From positions 11,899-75,898 of the IMG/VR virus record IMGVR_UViG_3300048686_000449: a stretch of 64,000 nucleotides of DNA, one strand, 5' to 3'. This DNA comes from a virus. This document shows, piece by piece, positions 658 to 57,834 of this stretch (position 1 is the stretch's first letter; each line of letters opens with the position of its first letter). The notes beneath the pieces are model-generated. The model had not been told where the DNA came from. It made no database searches and was given only the letters and a program-made list of their open reading frames with translations. Made by a program: the position numbers and the translations under genes.

Positions 658-2658
658 TCATTTACTCGTCGCCACATAGACGCCCGTCCAATTTGAAGGG
701 CATCCTGCAGATAATCGCTGTGTCATGATGGTATAATACTCTTTCAGTGTAGGATTTGATTGCGATAATCCATCAGCTAAGTGAAGAGCTTTTTTCCATT
801 CTCCCGAATAATACAAGTCTAAAAATTGTTGATGGACTGTATCATGTTCAGCTACGGTGTAAATATGAACACCCTGCTTCTTACCTTTCACAGCTAAACA
901 ATCAAGTTCTGTTACTGAGATTCGCGATTTCACTATCTCAGCAGTCTGTGGCCCAAGAATCAACTTGACCCCATATGATTTGCTCTGACCTTCCAATCGT
1001 GAGGCGAGATTGACCGCATCACCTAGACAGGTATAATCAAATCGTTGAGTGCTGCCCATGTTCCCGACAATCACAGATCCTGTATTGATGCCGATACCCA
1101 TGCCAAATGGTGGAACGCCTTCCGCAGCAATCTCCTCATTGAAACGATCCAAATCATGAAGCATTGTTTGGGCTGTCAGAACGGCATGATACGCATGATC
1201 CGCATCATTCAACGGTGCATTCCAGAAGGCCATCTGGGCATCTCCGATGTACTTATCTAATGTTCCCTGTTGAACGAGAATAGTTTCAGTCATGGCTGTC
1301 ATATACCGATTCATAATCTGCGTCAGCCCTTCAACATTCTCTCCATAATGTTCTGAGATCGTGGTGAATCCGCGTACATCAGTAAACATAATACTCAGTT
1401 CTCGTCGTTCACCACCCAAACGTAACAGCGCAGGATTTTGTTGGAGCTTCTCCACCATTGCAGGTGACAGATAAGTTCCAAATTGTTTTTTGATTTGTTG
1501 CTTTTGCAGAAACTCAGAGAGGAACTTGACGCCATACGCATGTAACGCAATCAGAATAAATCCTGCATCCAACATCGTAACATCAAGCAGCCATTTCTCT
1601 TTCGTATAGAACCAATAGGTGAATGCTGGCGCACTCAAAATCAGAAGAACTGTAAACCCGAGTCCCACATAGGTCCAGCGACTGAGCGCAATAATTAGAA
1701 GACCCCCCAGACACAGCAATGATAATTCAAGTCCCATGGCCCAATCGGGTCGTTGAATGGAGATGCCATTGATCAGAGTACCAATGACCGCTGCTTGGAC
1801 ATCGTGCGGCCACACTGATCCAAGACTGGTCGGCACAGGATTGGCCACGCCTGTCGCAGTGACACCCAGAATGACAATGGCACCGTTGAGATCGGGAATG
1901 GGATCAAGAAAAGAGTGTGTTTGAGCCGTCTGTGTCCAATCAATCCACACTCGTCCGAGTTCATCAGTCGCAATCGGTCCAAATTGAGGAATACGCAACT
2001 TCTCAATCCCGCCCGAGAATAACTTGACCTGAATCGTTGTATCATTAGCTAAGAGACGAAGAGTTTCCAGTGGCACCGAAGGATACAACACGCCCTGCGC
2101 ACTCGCGACTAATGGCATTCGACGAACCACACCATCAAGTTCGGGTAATGTATGAATCGTACCGACTCCAGCGGCAGCCGTTTCTAACAGAGGAATATTT
2201 GAGAGCATACCTGGATAAGTGATGAGTTGTGTGAGATATTCGGGATTGAGCACTACGCTTCCAGGGTAACGTGGTACATTCTTTTGTTCTTTGGCTGGCG
2301 CATTCACTAAGAGCACGGGATAACGATCCATCGTTTTTGCAAATAATTCATCACCATGATGTGGATCTGGGTCGGGCATCAAAATGGTGCTGATAACAAG
2401 TCCAGCACCGTGTGCATAGAGTTGTTGAATATACTCTGCATACACTGAGCGATTTAATGGATATTGCCCATAGCGAGTAATTGTCTGATCATCGATTTGA
2501 ATTGTATGAATCTGCGTGGCGACAGCAGGACCCGATGTCACCAATGTATCAAAGTATCGTAATCTGACTGATTCTAAAAATGATGGATCAGATTCACGAA
2601 CAGCAACCATTAAACATAATGTGAGAATTGCCCACCAGGGTGTTAACCAACGAATCAT
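658..2658 (-). CDS. CHASE2-domain class III adenylate cyclase
   Basis: N-terminal TM, CHASE2-like periplasmic region, three TM helices, then cyclase motifs MFTDVRGFT, DKYIGDAQMAFW and FDYTCLGDAVNLASRLE. K and D specificity residues indicate ATP. Confidence 0.92.
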   Translation of the reverse strand: MIRWLTPWWAILTLCLMVAVRESDPSFLESVRLRYFDTLVTSGPAVATQIHTIQIDDQTITRYGQYPLNRSVYAEYIQQLYAHGAGLVISTILMPDPDPHHGDELFAKTMDRYPVLLVNAPAKEQKNVPRYPGSVVLNPEYLTQLITYPGMLSNIPLLETAAAGVGTIHTLPELDGVVRRMPLVASAQGVLYPSVPLETLRLLANDTTIQVKLFSGGIEKLRIPQFGPIATDELGRVWIDWTQTAQTHSFLDPIPDLNGAIVILGVTATGVANPVPTSLGSVWPHDVQAAVIGTLINGISIQRPDWAMGLELSLLCLGGLLIIALSRWTYVGLGFTVLLILSAPAFTYWFYTKEKWLLDVTMLDAGFILIALHAYGVKFLSEFLQKQQIKKQFGTYLSPAMVEKLQQNPALLRLGGERRELSIMFTDVRGFTTISEHYGENVEGLTQIMNRYMTAMTETILVQQGTLDKYIGDAQMAFWNAPLNDADHAYHAVLTAQTMLHDLDRFNEEIAAEGVPPFGMGIGINTGSVIVGNMGSTQRFDYTCLGDAVNLASRLEGQSKSYGVKLILGPQTAEIVKSRISVTELDCLAVKGKKQGVHIYTVAEHDTVHQQFLDLYYSGEWKKALHLADGLSQSNPTLKEYYTIMTQRLSAGCPSNWTGVYVATSK

Positions 2659-12469: not shown

Positions 12470-12543
12470 TGGCGAATTCGCGAGGATTTGAACCTCGACC
12501 CTTAGTTTTGGAGACTAAGATGCTACCATTACACCACGAACTC
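12470..12543 (-). tRNA. trnW: tRNA-Trp(CCA)
   Basis: Cloverleaf. Anticodon loop CT-CCA-AA, T-loop TTCAAAT, encoded CCA end. Confidence 0.92.
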
Positions 12544-12566
12544 GCAAAGAGAAAACATAAAATGAC

Positions 12567-12650
12567 TAAATAGATGTGGGTCGCGATGTTATCAGCATCC
12601 ACCCACTCTAACACTATAGATTTAGGAGGAGTGCCAGCTATGTCTATTTA
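12567..12650 (+). repeat. conserved structured leader element, copy 1 (before the HNH endonuclease)
   Basis: TAAATAGATGTGGGTCGCG...CACCCACTCTAAC...GGAGTGCCAGCTATGTCTATTTA. Matches 43733-43824 and the reverse complement of 57317-57410. Confidence 0.85.
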
Positions 12651-12699
12651 TTCTACTAAAACTTATTCATTCGCATATCTCACGAGAGGTGGGATATGA
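12640..12699 (+). CDS. 19-aa leader ORF MSIYSTKTYSFAYLTRGGI, coupled to the HNH gene
   Basis: ATG lies in the conserved leader with a GGAGGAG SD. TGA overlaps the HNH ATG (ATGA). Confidence 0.5.
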   Translation: MSIYSTKTYSFAYLTRGGI

Positions 12700-13409
12700 A
12701 CTACAAAAAAGTTTACTTCTCTTTGATTGAGAAACGAAAAACCACTCCAGTTTTGGGATATTCCGAATCTCACCATATCACACCAAGAAGTCTAGGAGGT
12801 TCAGACGCTCCAGATAACATCGTTGAATTGACGGCGAGGGAGCACTTCTTCGCTCATCTACTTCTCACAAAAATACACAAAAGAGGTCCGGCGAAATATA
12901 AGATGGTCAGAGCTTTTATTATGATGCTTTGTGTTGCGGGTCAAAATCAACAGAGATATATCTCATCAAAAAGATATGACCAATTACGAAAACAATTTTC
13001 TATTGCGCAATCATTATCACAATCAGGCGAAAGAAATTCTCAGTTCGGAACTTGTTGGGTCGTTCACGATCTATTCGGTCCAAAAAGAATAGAAAAATCC
13101 CTATTCTGTGAATATGTAGAACAGGGATGGTATCTTGGAAGAACTTTCAATTATATACAAGAAAAGAAAACGTCAGTTCAGATAAAAGAAAGAAGAAAAC
13201 AAAAAACTCTAAAAAAGTATCCCAATCTTGATGAGTGGTATCGCATATATGATGCGAAAGGATTTGAAGAATTTGTTAGAATTACTGGATACCCTCATTC
13301 AAAACCTAATTTGGTTACGTTATTCGCAAAATATGTTCCGTCTTTTGTCCCACAAAATAGAAAAAGAAGAGGTTGGCTGGCGGGGCAGGCTTCGATCCTG
13401 CGACATTAG
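12696..13409 (+). mobile_element. free-standing HNH homing endonuclease
   Basis: Motif ESHHITPRSLGGSD...NIVELTAREHFFAHLLL. Opposite strand, AT-rich, inserted in the tRNA cluster. Confidence 0.88.
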
Positions 13410-13450
13410 GAGTAACAATCCTACGTTCGTACCATCTGAGCTACCCGACA
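13374..13450 (-). tRNA. trnN: tRNA-Asn(GTT)
   Basis: Cloverleaf with anticodon GTT and CCA end. Atypical T-loop ATCGAAG and one acceptor-stem mismatch. Confidence 0.75.
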
Positions 13451-13467
13451 TCAGCACATCTTATAAT

Positions 13468-13542
13468 TGGTAGCGGGGGCTGGAATCGCACCAGCGACCT
13501 TTAGGTTATGAGCCTAACGAGCTACTCCTGCTCCACCCCGCT
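13468..13542 (-). tRNA. trnM: tRNA-Met(CAT), initiator-like
   Basis: AGCGGGGTGGAGC...CT-CAT-AA...CCCCGCTACCA, similar to bacterial tRNA-fMet. Confidence 0.88.
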
Positions 13543-35641: not shown

Positions 35642-36192
35642 AAAAAATTCCCCCCTCCAGATAATCCTAATGCCTTTGCATAACGAGGAGTATTACATGC
35701 CCAATATGCAGCACTCGTTCGATCTTTCTGTGTAGAACATTTATGTCGTGCAGCGAATGACTTTCTTCGTTCAGGATTATTCATCTTTACACTTAATCCT
35801 GTGGTATCACCCCAGGTTACTTTTTTGACGCCACCATCTGGCTTGCGCACATACACATAAAACTTCTTAGGACCTCCGCGTTTTGGCTTATTTAATGGTG
35901 GGGTCGCTTCGTCTTCTTCCGCAATCATTGGACAATCCAATGGAACCATCGTTCCTTCATAGAGTTCAAATTCGCCAATATCAGTTTCTTCTAATAAGAT
36001 TCGATCCAGTTCAGATAATTGAATCACACCCTCTAATTGTAATTCGCGAGCCGTCCGAAATAGTTCAAAATACTTTTCAGATCCTACGCGGAAAATATTT
36101 TCCTGAAGCGGAACTTGATTAGTGAGATGCCAATCAAGTGCTTCCGCAATAGTTTGATCGGGTGCTGTATAATAGAATTTAAAAGATTTCAT
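35635..36192 (-). CDS. conserved hypothetical phage protein
   Basis: LNKPKRGG.KKFYVYV...KV.WGD...RRKSF.ARH.C...A.YWAC. Confidence 0.65.
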   Translation of the reverse strand: MKSFKFYYTAPDQTIAEALDWHLTNQVPLQENIFRVGSEKYFELFRTARELQLEGVIQLSELDRILLEETDIGEFELYEGTMVPLDCPMIAEEDEATPPLNKPKRGGPKKFYVYVRKPDGGVKKVTWGDTTGLSVKMNNPERRKSFAARHKCSTQKDRTSAAYWACNTPRYAKALGLSGGGNFFW

Positions 36193-38042
36193 GATTTCTT
36201 TATTAAAAACGTTTTACTTTTGACTGGAGCTCCCGCTCGTCCACCCATTTTCATATTCCATTCATCCTTATCAGGACCCCATTGTTGTGGTGTCGTTTCA
36301 TCATACCCATAGGTGGTTTCTTGCATTTTCTTTTTCACTTGTGCAAATGACAATTTCTGTTTAGGCGACTGTTCTAAGGTTTTCAATTTCGTATAGTAAT
36401 CGGGACGTTCTTTCAAATGATCTAATGCAATCTTGAGTGCAATATCCTGATCTTTCGTGTGTTCCATTTCTACTTCAATGCCCATTTCTAACTGCGCCAT
36501 AATAGACTTGTGGGAGACTCCATGTTTTTTCGCTAACTGGTCAATCATGGTTTCGCTTTGCTCCTCGATTATCTGCGATTCTTTGATACTGCGTTTTGGA
36601 TAGGAATCTACGGGTATCAAACGATTTTCGTGAAGATGATGTGTGATCAGACCGTGTGTGCCATACCGTCCAAATCCATAATATCGCAATCCTAGTTCAG
36701 CAATTTCATCAGAGAGATCTGGTCTTGGATGATCGGGAAGTGCAGGACGAATTGATTCAAAAAGCTGGTATGCGATTGGATCTTGGGAGTCGCGTGTAAG
36801 AAACTGATCAATGCGATGACGAATTTGCGTCAATTCAATGTTTTTTGATTCTGTAATCGTCAAATCAATCTGGGGATTCAACAGATCAATTGAGTTATCA
36901 AATACAATCAAATCTTCTTCAAACAAATCTTTAAAACGATCTAAGGCTTGTTGAGATCGTTCCCATTTTTCATGACGAATTGATTCTGTCATACATCGAC
37001 CACCGCGATGCCCACGAAGTTGATTACGATGTTGAGAACTTTCATCTGTAGTACTCACAAATGTCATCGCTGTGCTATATCCGACTGACTCCAATAGTTC
37101 AGCAATATGCACAATCTTATCCGCATCCTCAGCAGATCCGTTGACAATAATTCCTTGTGACCCTTCCAAGACCAACCGCGATCTCAAATCTGAGATCATC
37201 AATTTAGAAAGAGATTTTGTGGTTGAGTGCATCAAATGATCATAGATTTTTTCTGCACTTATTTCTGTCAATCCACATCCCTCAAAGACTCGTTTCAAAA
37301 GAAAATCTTTACCTGATCCTGGTCCGCCAACCAAAAACATGGCTTTATAGAGAGGTGGTTCAGGTGTATGAACTGATTCGGTAAGTTTCATGCTATGACG
37401 CACATCATGATAGAGTTCTTTGGCATGTTGATCCGAGACATGTGTGGGAACACCTTTACGAAATTCTTTGAAGTTGCCCGACTTCGCATGTTCTCGCATC
37501 TTTGATGCACTCATACCTTCGGCTCCTTCAGCATCGGGGTCTCTCTTTCCCGCTGACACTACTTTGATGGACTTGAACTTGTATTCTTTTCCATTATACT
37601 TGTTCAGGAGTTGCTTATACTGATGCGTGCGATCACTTCCTGCGACAAAGACTAAATGTTGATGCCCTGCCTGGTTCAATCGTTTGGCATGATGAATCAG
37701 TGTTGGCTCGTCTTTTGATGCAGCGGTAATCTTAGTGCCAGGAAAGTATCGCTTGAGATGCTTTATTTTTTGACTTGGCGACAGTGGATTCTTTTTAGAG
37801 TCCTGAGAATGGGAGACGACGAGTTCTTTATGATGACCCTCACCCACCTCATGGATCTTATCGACGAGTTTAGCGTGTCCAGTCGTTGGGGGATTCAGCC
37901 GCCCAAATGCCAGAACCGCTGTTGATTCTTTACCTTCAGAATACAGTTTCGGAAAAACTTCGGTGTAGGGCTGCGGAACTACTGAACTGGTGGCAGTGTT
38001 CGCTTTAGGGGAAAATATAGGTTTAGTGCTAAATTTTGACAT
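36189..38042 (-). CDS. cytidylyltransferase-like (HIGH) / P-loop kinase / DUF5661-like fusion
   Basis: FGRLNPPTTGH, VAGSDR and MSASKMR; GGPGSGKD; LEMGIEVEMEHT...ALDHL.E.PDYYTKL. Confidence 0.75.
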   Translation of the reverse strand: MSKFSTKPIFSPKANTATSSVVPQPYTEVFPKLYSEGKESTAVLAFGRLNPPTTGHAKLVDKIHEVGEGHHKELVVSHSQDSKKNPLSPSQKIKHLKRYFPGTKITAASKDEPTLIHHAKRLNQAGHQHLVFVAGSDRTHQYKQLLNKYNGKEYKFKSIKVVSAGKRDPDAEGAEGMSASKMREHAKSGNFKEFRKGVPTHVSDQHAKELYHDVRHSMKLTESVHTPEPPLYKAMFLVGGPGSGKDFLLKRVFEGCGLTEISAEKIYDHLMHSTTKSLSKLMISDLRSRLVLEGSQGIIVNGSAEDADKIVHIAELLESVGYSTAMTFVSTTDESSQHRNQLRGHRGGRCMTESIRHEKWERSQQALDRFKDLFEEDLIVFDNSIDLLNPQIDLTITESKNIELTQIRHRIDQFLTRDSQDPIAYQLFESIRPALPDHPRPDLSDEIAELGLRYYGFGRYGTHGLITHHLHENRLIPVDSYPKRSIKESQIIEEQSETMIDQLAKKHGVSHKSIMAQLEMGIEVEMEHTKDQDIALKIALDHLKERPDYYTKLKTLEQSPKQKLSFAQVKKKMQETTYGYDETTPQQWGPDKDEWNMKMGGRAGAPVKSKTFLIKKS

Positions 38043-43732: not shown

Positions 43733-43824
43733 ATTATAAATAGATGTGGGTCGCGATGCTACTAACATCCACCCACTCTAACACCATAGCTTTAGAAGGG
43801 AGTGTCAGCATGTCTATTTATAAT
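43733..43824 (+). repeat. conserved structured leader element, copy 2
   Basis: Perfect 12-bp inverted repeat ATTATAAATAGA/TCTATTTATAAT enclosing TGTGGGTCGCG...CACCCACTCTAAC...GAGTGTCAGCATG. Confidence 0.85.
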
Positions 43825-44472
43825 ACTACAAACAACATCTCAAGTCAAGAAACCCAATACAAGTTCTATGTCTACGCTTATCTGAGAAAGCGAAACGGAA
43901 CTCCATATTACATCGGAAAAGGTAAAGGTCGTCGTGTATATGCTACTCATAAAGGAATTTCTATTCCTTCAGATCGTTCTAAAATTATATTTCTAGAAAA
44001 GAATCTAAGTGAAGTTGGTGCGTTCGCATTAGAAAGAAGATATATCAGATGGTATGGAAGAAAAGATCTGGGAACAGGAATCCTTCTCAATAAAACAGAC
44101 GGCGGAGAGGGAACAGATAACATCTCACCTGAAACAAGAAAAAAGCGATCAGAATCAAGAAAAAGATGGTGTAAAGAAAATCCAAATTCAAATCCAATGA
44201 ATAATCCAAAATATCGCGAAAAAATCAGCAAATCTTTGACAGGAAGACATCATTCACCAGAAACTATAGAAAAACTCAAAAAGTCTCATAAAGGAATGAC
44301 TGGAAGAAGACACTCTGATGAAACACGAGCGAAAATATCAGAAACTAAGAAAAGAAAATGGCAAAATCCAGAATTCAGACAAAAAATGATGAGTGTGCTT
44401 CAAGGAACAGAATATAGAGAAAAAATGTCCAAAACTATGAAGGAACTCTTGTCAACGCAAGAATCTTCTTGA
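43810..44472 (+). mobile_element. free-standing GIY-YIG homing endonuclease with NUMOD3 repeats
   Basis: FYVYAYLR...PYYIGKG, LER..I.WYGR and [10 protein letters not shown]. Repeats HSPET.EK and [10 protein letters not shown]. Opposite strand. Confidence 0.88.
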
Positions 44473-55492: not shown

Positions 55493-55611
55493 AATACACT
55501 CCTTAGAAAAAAGAGGCAATAAAATCAATCACGGGGATCAAATAATACCCAAAGAGAAATCCTGCTATTGAAAGTGAGAGTACGATAAGATAAATGTTCA
55601 TAGAAAAATAA

Positions 55612-55678
55612 GATGGGCGATCTATCCTAGAGATTTCTAGGAACGCACACCATACGGTGACAGTTCAATCGCCCATCG
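55612..55678 (-). terminator. branched stem-loop followed by U-tract downstream of hsp20
   Basis: GATGGGCGAT/ATCGCCCATC closing stem with two internal hairpins, followed by TTATTTTT. Confidence 0.5.
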
Positions 55679-56668: not shown

Positions 56669-57328
56669 TTATTCCCTGAAACATTTCCATCCCTTATGAT
56701 GGGTGGATTTTCCTGATGAAACCCTACCCATATTACCTTGATCTAAATTGTTATTTCGACAAAATTCTTTTAAATTTTTGATCCTAAAACATTCGCCTGC
56801 GGGTGATATAATTTTCCAGTAAAGACTATTTTTATCATTTCTTTTATTTATGGTCTTCTCAGATTGTTTTAATCCTTTATGAGATTCACTCATTCTATTT
56901 CTAACTTCTAAAGAGAGAAATTTACCTTTTTTCGGTGAGGGTTTTCCTCGACGCTGTTCACTCCATTTCCTTTTTATTTCTTCGCTATATCTGTAACCTT
57001 TTCTTTTTTCGCTTATCAGTTTTCTTGTTTTATATGAAGGATTGGTTAATCCATCCCCGCCATCTGTTCTGTTTCTCAAAATTCCGGTTCCTAAATCTTT
57101 TCTTCCATACCAACGTATATATCGTCGTTCTAATGCTATTGCTCCTATCTCACTTAATCCTTGCTCTATAATAACAATACATTTTGAATTTTTCGGAAGA
57201 TGTATCGTATGATCTTTGCTCCAAGCTCTTAAGTTTTTACCCTTTCCGATATAGTAAGGGGTGCCATCTACTCGCAAATAAGCATAAACATAAAAACCTT
57301 TAGGCGGAAAAGAAGAATAAATAGACAT
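56669..57328 (-). mobile_element. free-standing GIY-YIG homing endonuclease with NUMOD3 repeats
   Basis: [45 protein letters not shown] and C-terminal HKGW. Inserted between gp62 and regA. Confidence 0.88.
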
Positions 57329-57410
57329 ACCTGACGCTCCTGGTTATATAACAGCGTTAGAGTGGGTGGGAATTCGTAGTTCCGCGACCCACATAATATA
57401 TCTATTTATA
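57317..57410 (-). repeat. conserved structured leader element, copy 3
   Basis: Minus strand TATAAATAGATAT...ATGTGGGTCGCGGAA..TTCCCACCCACTCTAACGCT...GGAGCGTCAGGTATGTCTATTTAT. Confidence 0.85.
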
Positions 57411-57441
57411 TATTTTAAGTTTTAGAATTGATATAAATCTG

Positions 57442-57834
57442 TCATTTGATTATCCCACCTGTATCAGTGATCCTTTTAAGATCTGCCAATTGTTCAGGAG
57501 TGAGCAGAGGAAGAATCTGACGAGATTTGGCGTCTGAATACCCATAAGCGAGTTTCACACATTCCAAATCGTCAGGAGACTCGGCTTTACTCCACTTGAC
57601 ATAGGGTCGTTTCCGACCCCTCACTGTATTTATAAGATAAGAAAATTGTAATTTCTTATCCAGGTGGTGGCGACGATTCATTTCGTTGGCAAACAACACA
57701 CAATCCTGATGATAGGACAAACTCCGATTGGTGAGAAAAGGTACATAGGATTTCTCACTTATATCATCAACGATCAGATCTTTCTTCCCATAACTAATCT
57801 GATTAACATAATCAAAGGGATTGATTTTATCCAT
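57442..57834 (-). CDS. gp62: clamp loader small subunit (T4 gp62)
   Basis: YVPFL.NRSLSY..D...ANEMN and YGYS..K...L. Confidence 0.9.
   Translation of the reverse strand: MDKINPFDYVNQISYGKKDLIVDDISEKSYVPFLTNRSLSYHQDCVLFANEMNRRHHLDKKLQFSYLINTVRGRKRPYVKWSKAESPDDLECVKLAYGYSDAKSRQILPLLTPEQLADLKRITDTGGIIK

Follow-up and report, generated by a model that had tools for sequence, protein, structure and literature searches.

What does a short element that recurs at dispersed sites of a phage genome do at the start of homing endonuclease genes, and on which of the two strands does it act? This question is raised by a cassette of about 85 bp that occurs in three copies, at 12567-12652 (+), 43735-43822 (+) and 57316-57410 (-), in an uncultured T4-like lake phage; all coordinates refer to the window, meaning the whole stretch of 64,000 nucleotides that was analysed. 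T4-like phages have homing endonucleases as their main mobile elements, and to our knowledge the known controls of these enzymes in such phages are single gene-specific hairpins and autorepression. A preliminary description of the locus had taken the element for a portable regulatory leader with several stems in the nuclease mRNA.

Three copies in a T4-like lake phage

The phage is T4-like, with gp47, gp46, gp45, gp44, gp62, cassette copy 3, regA, Hsp20, a MazG-like pyrophosphohydrolase and a family B polymerase following each other on the minus strand, and it further encodes a ribonucleotide reductase, a DnaB-like helicase and an ATP-dependent DNA ligase. This T4 order of the replication genes makes late promoters of the TATAAATA type plausible in the phage. 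The completeness of the record is given by IMG/VR as about 46%. The window also holds some features of separate interest. A full-length match to the Rfam DUF3800-IX RNA lies at 55608-55677 (-), between the Hsp20 and MazG-like genes of the replication module (64.4 bits, gathering score 36.8). A 666-aa protein with CHASE2 sensor and adenylate/guanylate cyclase domains, unusual in a phage, is encoded at 658-2658 (-), and a 617-aa fusion of cytidylyltransferase-like, Zeta-toxin/AAA_33 kinase-like and DUF5661 parts at 36189-38042 (-).

That a common element occupies three dispersed sites was borne out in two ways. The pattern GTGGGTCGCG-N(10-30)-CCACCCACTCTAAC occurs three times in the window (12576-12612 +, 43746-43782 +, 57356-57392 -) and not once in 100 shuffled versions of it, and a covariance model built from relatives found the same three sites and no other, both in the window and in the whole 75.9-kb record, with scores of 85.1, 74.4 and 67.5 bits, the best being that of copy 2 (85.1). 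TAAATA precedes each copy and YCAG-N-ATG TCT ATT TAT comes after each. Read on the gene strand, every copy starts with a TAAATA or TATAAATA box, followed after 3-10 nt by helix P1, of the form GTGGGT-C-G-C-[variable hairpin]-C-ACCCAC, and one base further by helix P2, CTAAC-[loop with a GGAG/AGGA ribosome site]-GYCAG; ATG TCT ATT TAT stands one or two bases past P2. Three of the six occurrences of TATAAATA in the window fall within cassettes.

In copy 1, the late-promoter-like TAAATA box lies at 12567-12572 (+, the gene strand), and its complement would form the U-rich tail of the antisense RNA predicted below. P1, with its outer GTGGGT/ACCCAC, two bulges, covarying pair and variable inner hairpin, spans 12576-12606 and P2 (CTAAC.../...GCCAG) 12608-12637, both assigned to the minus strand as the selected one, so that P2 carries the Shine-Dalgarno on the gene strand and its complement in the antisense direction. 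A late-promoter-like box AATAAATA on the minus strand (12645-12652) falls within codons 2-5 of a short ORF, a GIY-YIG remnant of 19 codons (MSIYSTKTYSFAYLTRGGI; 12640-12699, +) that keeps the M-x-I-Y start of the cassette. The ATG of the HNH-type homing endonuclease gene that follows (12696-13409, +; phrog_655, E 2.7e-42) overlaps the stop of this remnant as ATGA, which suggests that one nuclease replaced another behind the cassette. The claim that the element heads all three homing endonucleases is thus correct for copies 2 and 3 and needs amending for copy 1, which heads the remnant. Copy 1 and the HNH gene are surrounded by clustered tRNA genes of the minus strand (Met and Asn on one side, Trp on the other; 12470-13542), a place that recalls T4 segB in its tRNA region.

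Copy 2 has a perfect TATAAATA box at either end, one on the gene strand (43735-43742, +) and one on the opposite strand (43815-43822, -) within codons 2-5 of the nuclease gene; between them, P1 (43746-43776) and P2 (43778-43808) make up the core of the predicted antisense RNA (43746-43808, -). The gene itself (43810-44472, +) encodes a seg-like homing endonuclease of the GIY-YIG/NUMOD3 type (MSIY...YVYAYL...PYYIGKG). Copy 3 has the reverse orientation, with a perfect TATAAATA box at 57403-57410 (-, here the gene strand), P2 at 57331-57360 and P1 at 57362-57392 as the core of the predicted antisense RNA (57331-57392, +), and an antisense late-promoter-like box AATAAATA at 57316-57323 (+) within codons 2-5 of another seg-like GIY-YIG/NUMOD3 gene (56669-57328, -), which sits between the clamp-loader gene gp62 and regA.

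Eleven runs from lake water that are labelled as metatranscriptomes contain parts of the phage. Copy 3 is bridged by contigs with an identity to the phage of at least 99% (57075-57481, 57248-57592 and 57122-57610, from four runs), and one further contig ends at 43783 inside copy 2, most simply through an assembly break at the repeat; all of these contigs are unstranded and hence silent on strand, ends and level, and DNA carry-over is possible. A contig of run X4 matches only the core of copy 2 (43769-43821) and differs in its flanks, with another inner hairpin and another YVYAYL-type gene. It represents a further copy of the cassette, either from the missing half of the genome or from a relative.

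Relatives of the cassette and the strand of its conserved fold

Relatives were collected from uncultured viral contigs by four pattern scans, each anchored on another part of the element, which returned 7, 78, at least 119 and at least 119 loci. After filtering with a structural detector that took Watson-Crick, G.U and A.C pairs equally, at least 239 unique elements were obtained among the matches listed. Pfam domains in 148 downstream ORFs included NUMOD3 (54), GIY-YIG (13), SegE GIY-YIG (5), HNH_3 (10), HNH (7), the I-TevI DNA-binding domain (3) and the I-HmuI NUMOD-like domain (2), and the only near-invariant protein columns downstream of the cassettes are M1, I3 and Y4. With GIY-YIG, HNH and NUMOD-type ORFs all found behind it, the cassette is common to hundreds of unrelated nuclease genes in uncultured phages, and the portability proposed for it in the preliminary description is upheld.

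The element also matches no named family, as had been supposed: Rfam 15 gave nothing at gathering score at the three cassette sites when the whole window was scanned, and only two chance-level matches for copy 2 at E <= 10. Group I intron fragments were considered and rejected, the copies lying between genes or beside tRNAs and having no Rfam match, as were known ribozyme and riboswitch classes, again for want of an Rfam match. Searches of GenBank phages by blastn with the window copies and a common variant yielded no real match even at E <= 10, and no description of the cassette turned up in literature searches that covered antisense RNA, structured RNAs of phages and homing endonucleases. 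Among species-representative bacterial and archaeal genomes there were nine true matches, all on contigs of metagenome-assembled genomes (MAGs) and none in an isolate. These are a 49-kb contig of a Nitrosarchaeum MAG and eight further MAG contigs, and most likely they are phage DNA mis-binned into bacteria and archaea.

For the analysis of covariation, 150 elements less than 80% identical to each other were aligned in antisense orientation. Of the cells expected to pair, 98.0% do so, against 76.5 +/- 0.5% in shuffled alignments and at most 45% when the two sides are slid against each other, and 625 cells are double changes against 157 in the shuffles; none of 500 shuffles reached the observed values of either. 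RNAalifold predicted 19 pairs, 16 of them with compensatory changes. The compensatory changes first noticed among the window copies (GATG/CATC against GGAA/TTCC in the first stem, CAC/GTG against CGC/GCG in the second) are therefore real and extend, in a larger alignment and its covariance model, to strong covariation of both helices. When P1 was left free in the scan, its outer part was found as GTGGGT/ACCCAC, GTAGTT/AACTAC, GTCTGT/ACAGAC, GTGACT/AGTCAC and others. On contigs with several copies (L126, L173, L089 and L013 among them) the outer P1 often differs between copies, unlike in the window, where all three copies have an identical outer P1; this could bear on cross-talk between them.

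The helices contain a few fixed positions. What had been described as a constant CGC bulge consists of two single-base bulges, which are indeed invariant, and of a pair between them that covaries (on the gene strand G-C in 101, A-T in 21 and A.C in 28 elements). P2' is conserved as well as P1', and has at its base, in antisense letters, one G.U pair that is present in 150 of 150 elements, beside which two pairs alternate between A-U, G.U and G-C and between U.G, C-G and U-A. Two motifs considered along the way were discarded: CACUCU as a mimic of an anti-Shine-Dalgarno, as P2 covaries with itself and not with CACUCU, and CTCTAAC as an invariant single-stranded motif, as its last two bases vary and covary with RYCAG.

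The pairs that are not Watson-Crick reveal the strand on which this fold is selected. In gene-strand letters they comprise 341 A.C and 18 G.U, on the opposite strand accordingly 341 G.U and 18 A.C, so that the share of standard pairs is 98.0% in antisense letters and 86.6% in those of the gene strand. With P1 left free in the scan, the same picture was obtained for the outer P1, pair 8 and the inner helix together (48 A.C against 2 G.U in gene-strand letters). The antisense core also folds 5.5 kcal/mol better (-18.3 against -12.9 kcal/mol for the gene strand) and is the lower of the two in 228 of 238 elements (Wilcoxon p = 4e-40). Together, this asymmetry and the folding energies assign the selected fold to the strand that lies opposite the nuclease gene. 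The predicted opposite-strand RNA forms exactly two hairpins in 236 of 238 elements and has a median length of 68 nt; in its predicted fold, the anti-Shine-Dalgarno tetramer is only about half unpaired.

Facing promoter boxes and a candidate antisense RNA

Box statistics were taken from 62 elements found by patterns that fix neither box. A sense box NNTAAATA is present in 58 of them, in 33 as the full TATAAATA, 3-5 nt upstream of P1, and an antisense box NATAAATA occupies a fixed place in codons 2-4 in 41. Codon 3 is ATT in 41, ATA in 5 and ATC in 1 of the ORFs, against 274, 263 and 113 in the bodies of the same ORFs, and codon 4 is TAT in 50 and TAC in none, against 315 and 99. Such a bias among synonymous codons means that selection acts on the nucleotides and not on the amino acids. 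The inner box thereby forces the protein start to M-x-I-Y, and its retention at the nucleotide level accounts for GIY-YIG genes that read M-x-I-Y-S-I-Y-K, with a second IY before the true GIY motif, and for HNH genes that read M-x-I-Y-H-K-H-H. The earlier proposal that either end can be read, on its own strand, as a late promoter of the T4 type is thus well founded, both in the facing boxes of the relatives and in their conservation at the nucleotide level.

Beyond the boxes, 222 of 238 elements carry behind P1' a tail with five or more T in 8 nt, and this tail is still T-rich in 11 of 15 elements that have no sense box. A simple terminator scan did not flag the P1' site, because the stem is bulged. 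In one subgroup (L097, L141, L146, L190 and L193) the sense TAAATA box is replaced by GTCAACAAAAAT or GACAACAA; their antisense tail, still rich in T, has the sequence TTGAC(A), which resembles the -35 hexamer of sigma-70 promoters.

Transcription from T4 late promoters starts about 6 nt after the box, and with this spacing the predicted start of the mRNA falls at the edge of P1 or slightly within it, and that of the opposite RNA one base ahead of P2'. The reading that we favour, at a probability of roughly 0.55, is that a late cis-antisense RNA of about 70 nt with two hairpins covers the ribosome site and the start codon of the nuclease mRNA, as RNA-OUT does in IS10. The cassette would then be a self-contained control unit that travels with free-standing homing endonuclease genes of T4-like phages and that contains two T4-type late boxes pointing towards each other over a distance of about 75 bp. 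The nuclease mRNA would start from the outer box, and from the inner one an opposite-strand RNA made of two hairpins joined by a single base, with a U-rich tail behind them that is complementary to the outer box. This RNA would be fully complementary to the mRNA leader, the Shine-Dalgarno and the bases up to the start codon, and it would fold stably and pair with the weaker-folding leader, with a ribosome block, cleavage of the duplex or both as the consequence; promoters facing each other so closely would also interfere mutually. We infer in this the firing of the boxes, the position of the RNA end and the repression of the nuclease. Overall, a nuclease that may be toxic would thereby be held at a low level, and increasingly so when copies of the genome build up late in infection. 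Since a strong terminator before a divergent gene would be polar, the antisense RNA may in many cases form the 5' portion of a longer transcript, and it is possible that the invariant bulged G's and the invariant G.U are bound by a protein.

The neighbouring genes offer another role for the opposite-strand transcript, namely that of a late promoter with a structured 5' leader or stabiliser for the neighbour, which would make up for the polar effect of an insertion in reverse. Crude ORF calls placed a divergent gene upstream of 135 and a co-directional one upstream of 69 of 204 classifiable elements, and in about two thirds of the contexts a divergent gene starts at a median of about 50 nt past the tail, often within 5-60 nt of it. 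In the window, the predicted minus-strand transcript of copy 1 would run into tRNA-Trp 24 nt further on and that of copy 2 into a 45-aa ORF 13 nt further on, and nuclease genes of T4 are known to embed promoters for their neighbours (PMC2988022). Yet the cassette does not depend on such a neighbour: for copy 3, such a transcript would meet nothing but gp62 in antisense orientation, and in co-directional contexts the antisense box is present in 11 of 15 unbiased elements and A.C exceeds G.U by 23 to 0, so that box, fold and strand asymmetry are equally kept where there is no divergent gene to serve. Service to a neighbour therefore does not explain the cassette in general; moreover, two covarying hairpins with invariant bulges would be superfluous in a simple promoter, and a U-rich tail right after a GC-rich stem resembles a stop signal. 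We regard this explanation as unlikely, although one to be kept in mind. The backward promoter that had been suggested to re-drive an interrupted operon is accordingly possible for copies 1 and 2 and does not hold in general, and an antisense promoter that serves the neighbour may be a benefit in reverse insertions.

A bolder form of the antisense reading, which we consider improbable, would make the cassette the first small RNA family dedicated to homing endonucleases, with a late RNA of about 70 nt in which the two invariant bulged G's and the invariant G.U form a docking site for a phage or host protein and which, as the copies have their core in common, also acts in trans on other copies. 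If it were true, action in trans within a cell or between co-infecting phages would amount to a copy-number and competition network among selfish nucleases, comparable to the multi-copy inhibition of IS10.

It is doubtful, and quite improbable in our estimation, that the hairpins are mainly a transcription stop, an insulator or an RNA-processing site for transcripts in the antisense direction, with the inner box as an incidental feature. The GC-rich P1' stem and the T-rich tail behind it would suit such a role, but P2' would be superfluous for termination in spite of its equal conservation, the inner box is under selection at the nucleotide level, and a stop signal inside operons would be polar.

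The leader of the nuclease mRNA, which was the original interpretation, has become very unlikely. According to it, several stems hide the ribosome site on read-through mRNA, a late promoter relieves this block, and a protein or ligand possibly binds at the bulges. The late-type box directly upstream and the Shine-Dalgarno inside P2 agree with this, as do the minimum free energies of the long sense RNAs of copies 1 and 3, which beat those of shuffles (z -3.4 and -4.6), and T-even nucleases do use late promoters with hairpins that sequester the ribosome binding site (PMC2988022). However, the fold is the weaker one on the gene strand, where the non-Watson-Crick pairs are nearly all A.C, one of them invariant, and the sense RNA of copy 2 folds no better than shuffles. 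The outer inverted repeat, the sole pairing for which upstream sequence is needed, shows no covariation beyond the promoter boxes, the complementarity of the flanking bases being 0.30 against 0.27 and 0.39 against 0.35, which is not significant. Its 8-bp form TAAATAGA/TCTATTTA is confined to the lineage of the window phage (17 of 200 elements) and lacks covariation. The outer helix is thus best seen as a by-product of two facing promoters, and the helix between promoter and start codon that was thought to silence read-through mRNA finds no support.

Least probable is conservation on the DNA itself, as a site of recombination or cassette exchange like the PeSLs and possibly with single-stranded DNA hairpins: the apparent replacement of a nuclease gene downstream of the intact copy 1, the occurrence of one cassette before unrelated nuclease families and the implication of PeSLs, as portable promoter/terminator motifs, in shuffling (PMC4122927) would fit it, but homologous exchange wants identity and not compensatory changes that preserve helices, and the wobble pairs, with their bias to one strand, speak for a single strand that is transcribed or folded.

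Comparison with known regulatory systems

If the antisense reading is true, a widespread portable module of promoter, leader, start codon and opposing RNA would add a new layer to the control of homing nucleases, and its RNA would be a candidate for a new class of phage non-coding RNA, absent from Rfam. Such a module would explain how unrelated nucleases swap behind a constant 5' end, as copy 1 seems to illustrate. It is compact, and it could also serve as a late-timed expression part with built-in damping.

Among the systems with which it may be compared, the PeSLs are cassettes of an early promoter and a stem-loop in T4-like phages (PMC2839356; PMC4122927) and, like the present element, are short, conserved and portable motifs at gene boundaries that are tied to gene swapping. 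They differ in combining an early sigma-70-type promoter with a terminator on one strand, in having no tie to nucleases and in excluding the ORF start; the boxes of our cassette are late-type TATAAATA and lie on opposite strands. In cyanophage S-PM2, the antisense RNA CfrI of about 225 nt extends over the F-CphI nuclease gene and psbA (PMC2984593). It likewise overlaps, and is co-expressed with, a homing endonuclease gene in a T4-like phage, but it is about three times longer and bridges to psbA, and the covariance model has no match in S-PM2 (AJ630128) at E <= 10, so that CfrI and the cassette are not of the same family.

Another system is found in the nuclease genes of T-even phages and Aeh1 (I-TevI, I-TevII, I-TevIII, segB and mobE), in which a late promoter is combined with hairpins that sequester the ribosome binding site (PMC2988022). 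Here too a late promoter of the TATAAATA type directly precedes a free-standing or intron nuclease gene and an RNA structure at the ribosome site would limit expression, and a box of this kind stands right upstream of the nuclease start in nearly all relatives of the cassette (58/62) and is perfect in copies 2 and 3. However, those hairpins are single, gene-specific and formed in the mRNA with a 5' arm upstream of the late start, whereas P2 lies wholly inside the late transcript and needs no upstream sequence. The cassette is one homologous module of two hairpins shared by hundreds of unrelated genes; its fold is selected on the other strand, and codons 2-4 contain a further late promoter box that faces the first.

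A parallel to the proposed mechanism is offered by IS10, in which translation of the transposase mRNA is repressed by an antisense RNA of 69 nt that is complementary to its translation-initiation region, blocks ribosome binding and acts more strongly at high copy number (PMC5006887). RNA-OUT and RNA-IN share with the proposed scheme an opposite-strand promoter near the 5' end of a selfish gene, a short and stable stem-loop RNA, and coverage of the initiation region. There is no homology in sequence or structure between the two: the cassette is phage-borne, has late instead of sigma-70 promoters and two hairpins instead of one, is portable between unrelated genes, and has a regulatory function that is for now inferred. 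Two features of the IS10 type have their counterparts in the cassette, the candidate opposite-strand promoter near the ORF start at the level of sequence (NATAAATA, 41/62), and the stable antisense stem-loops, complementary to the ribosome site, in the covariation and folding that place them under selection.
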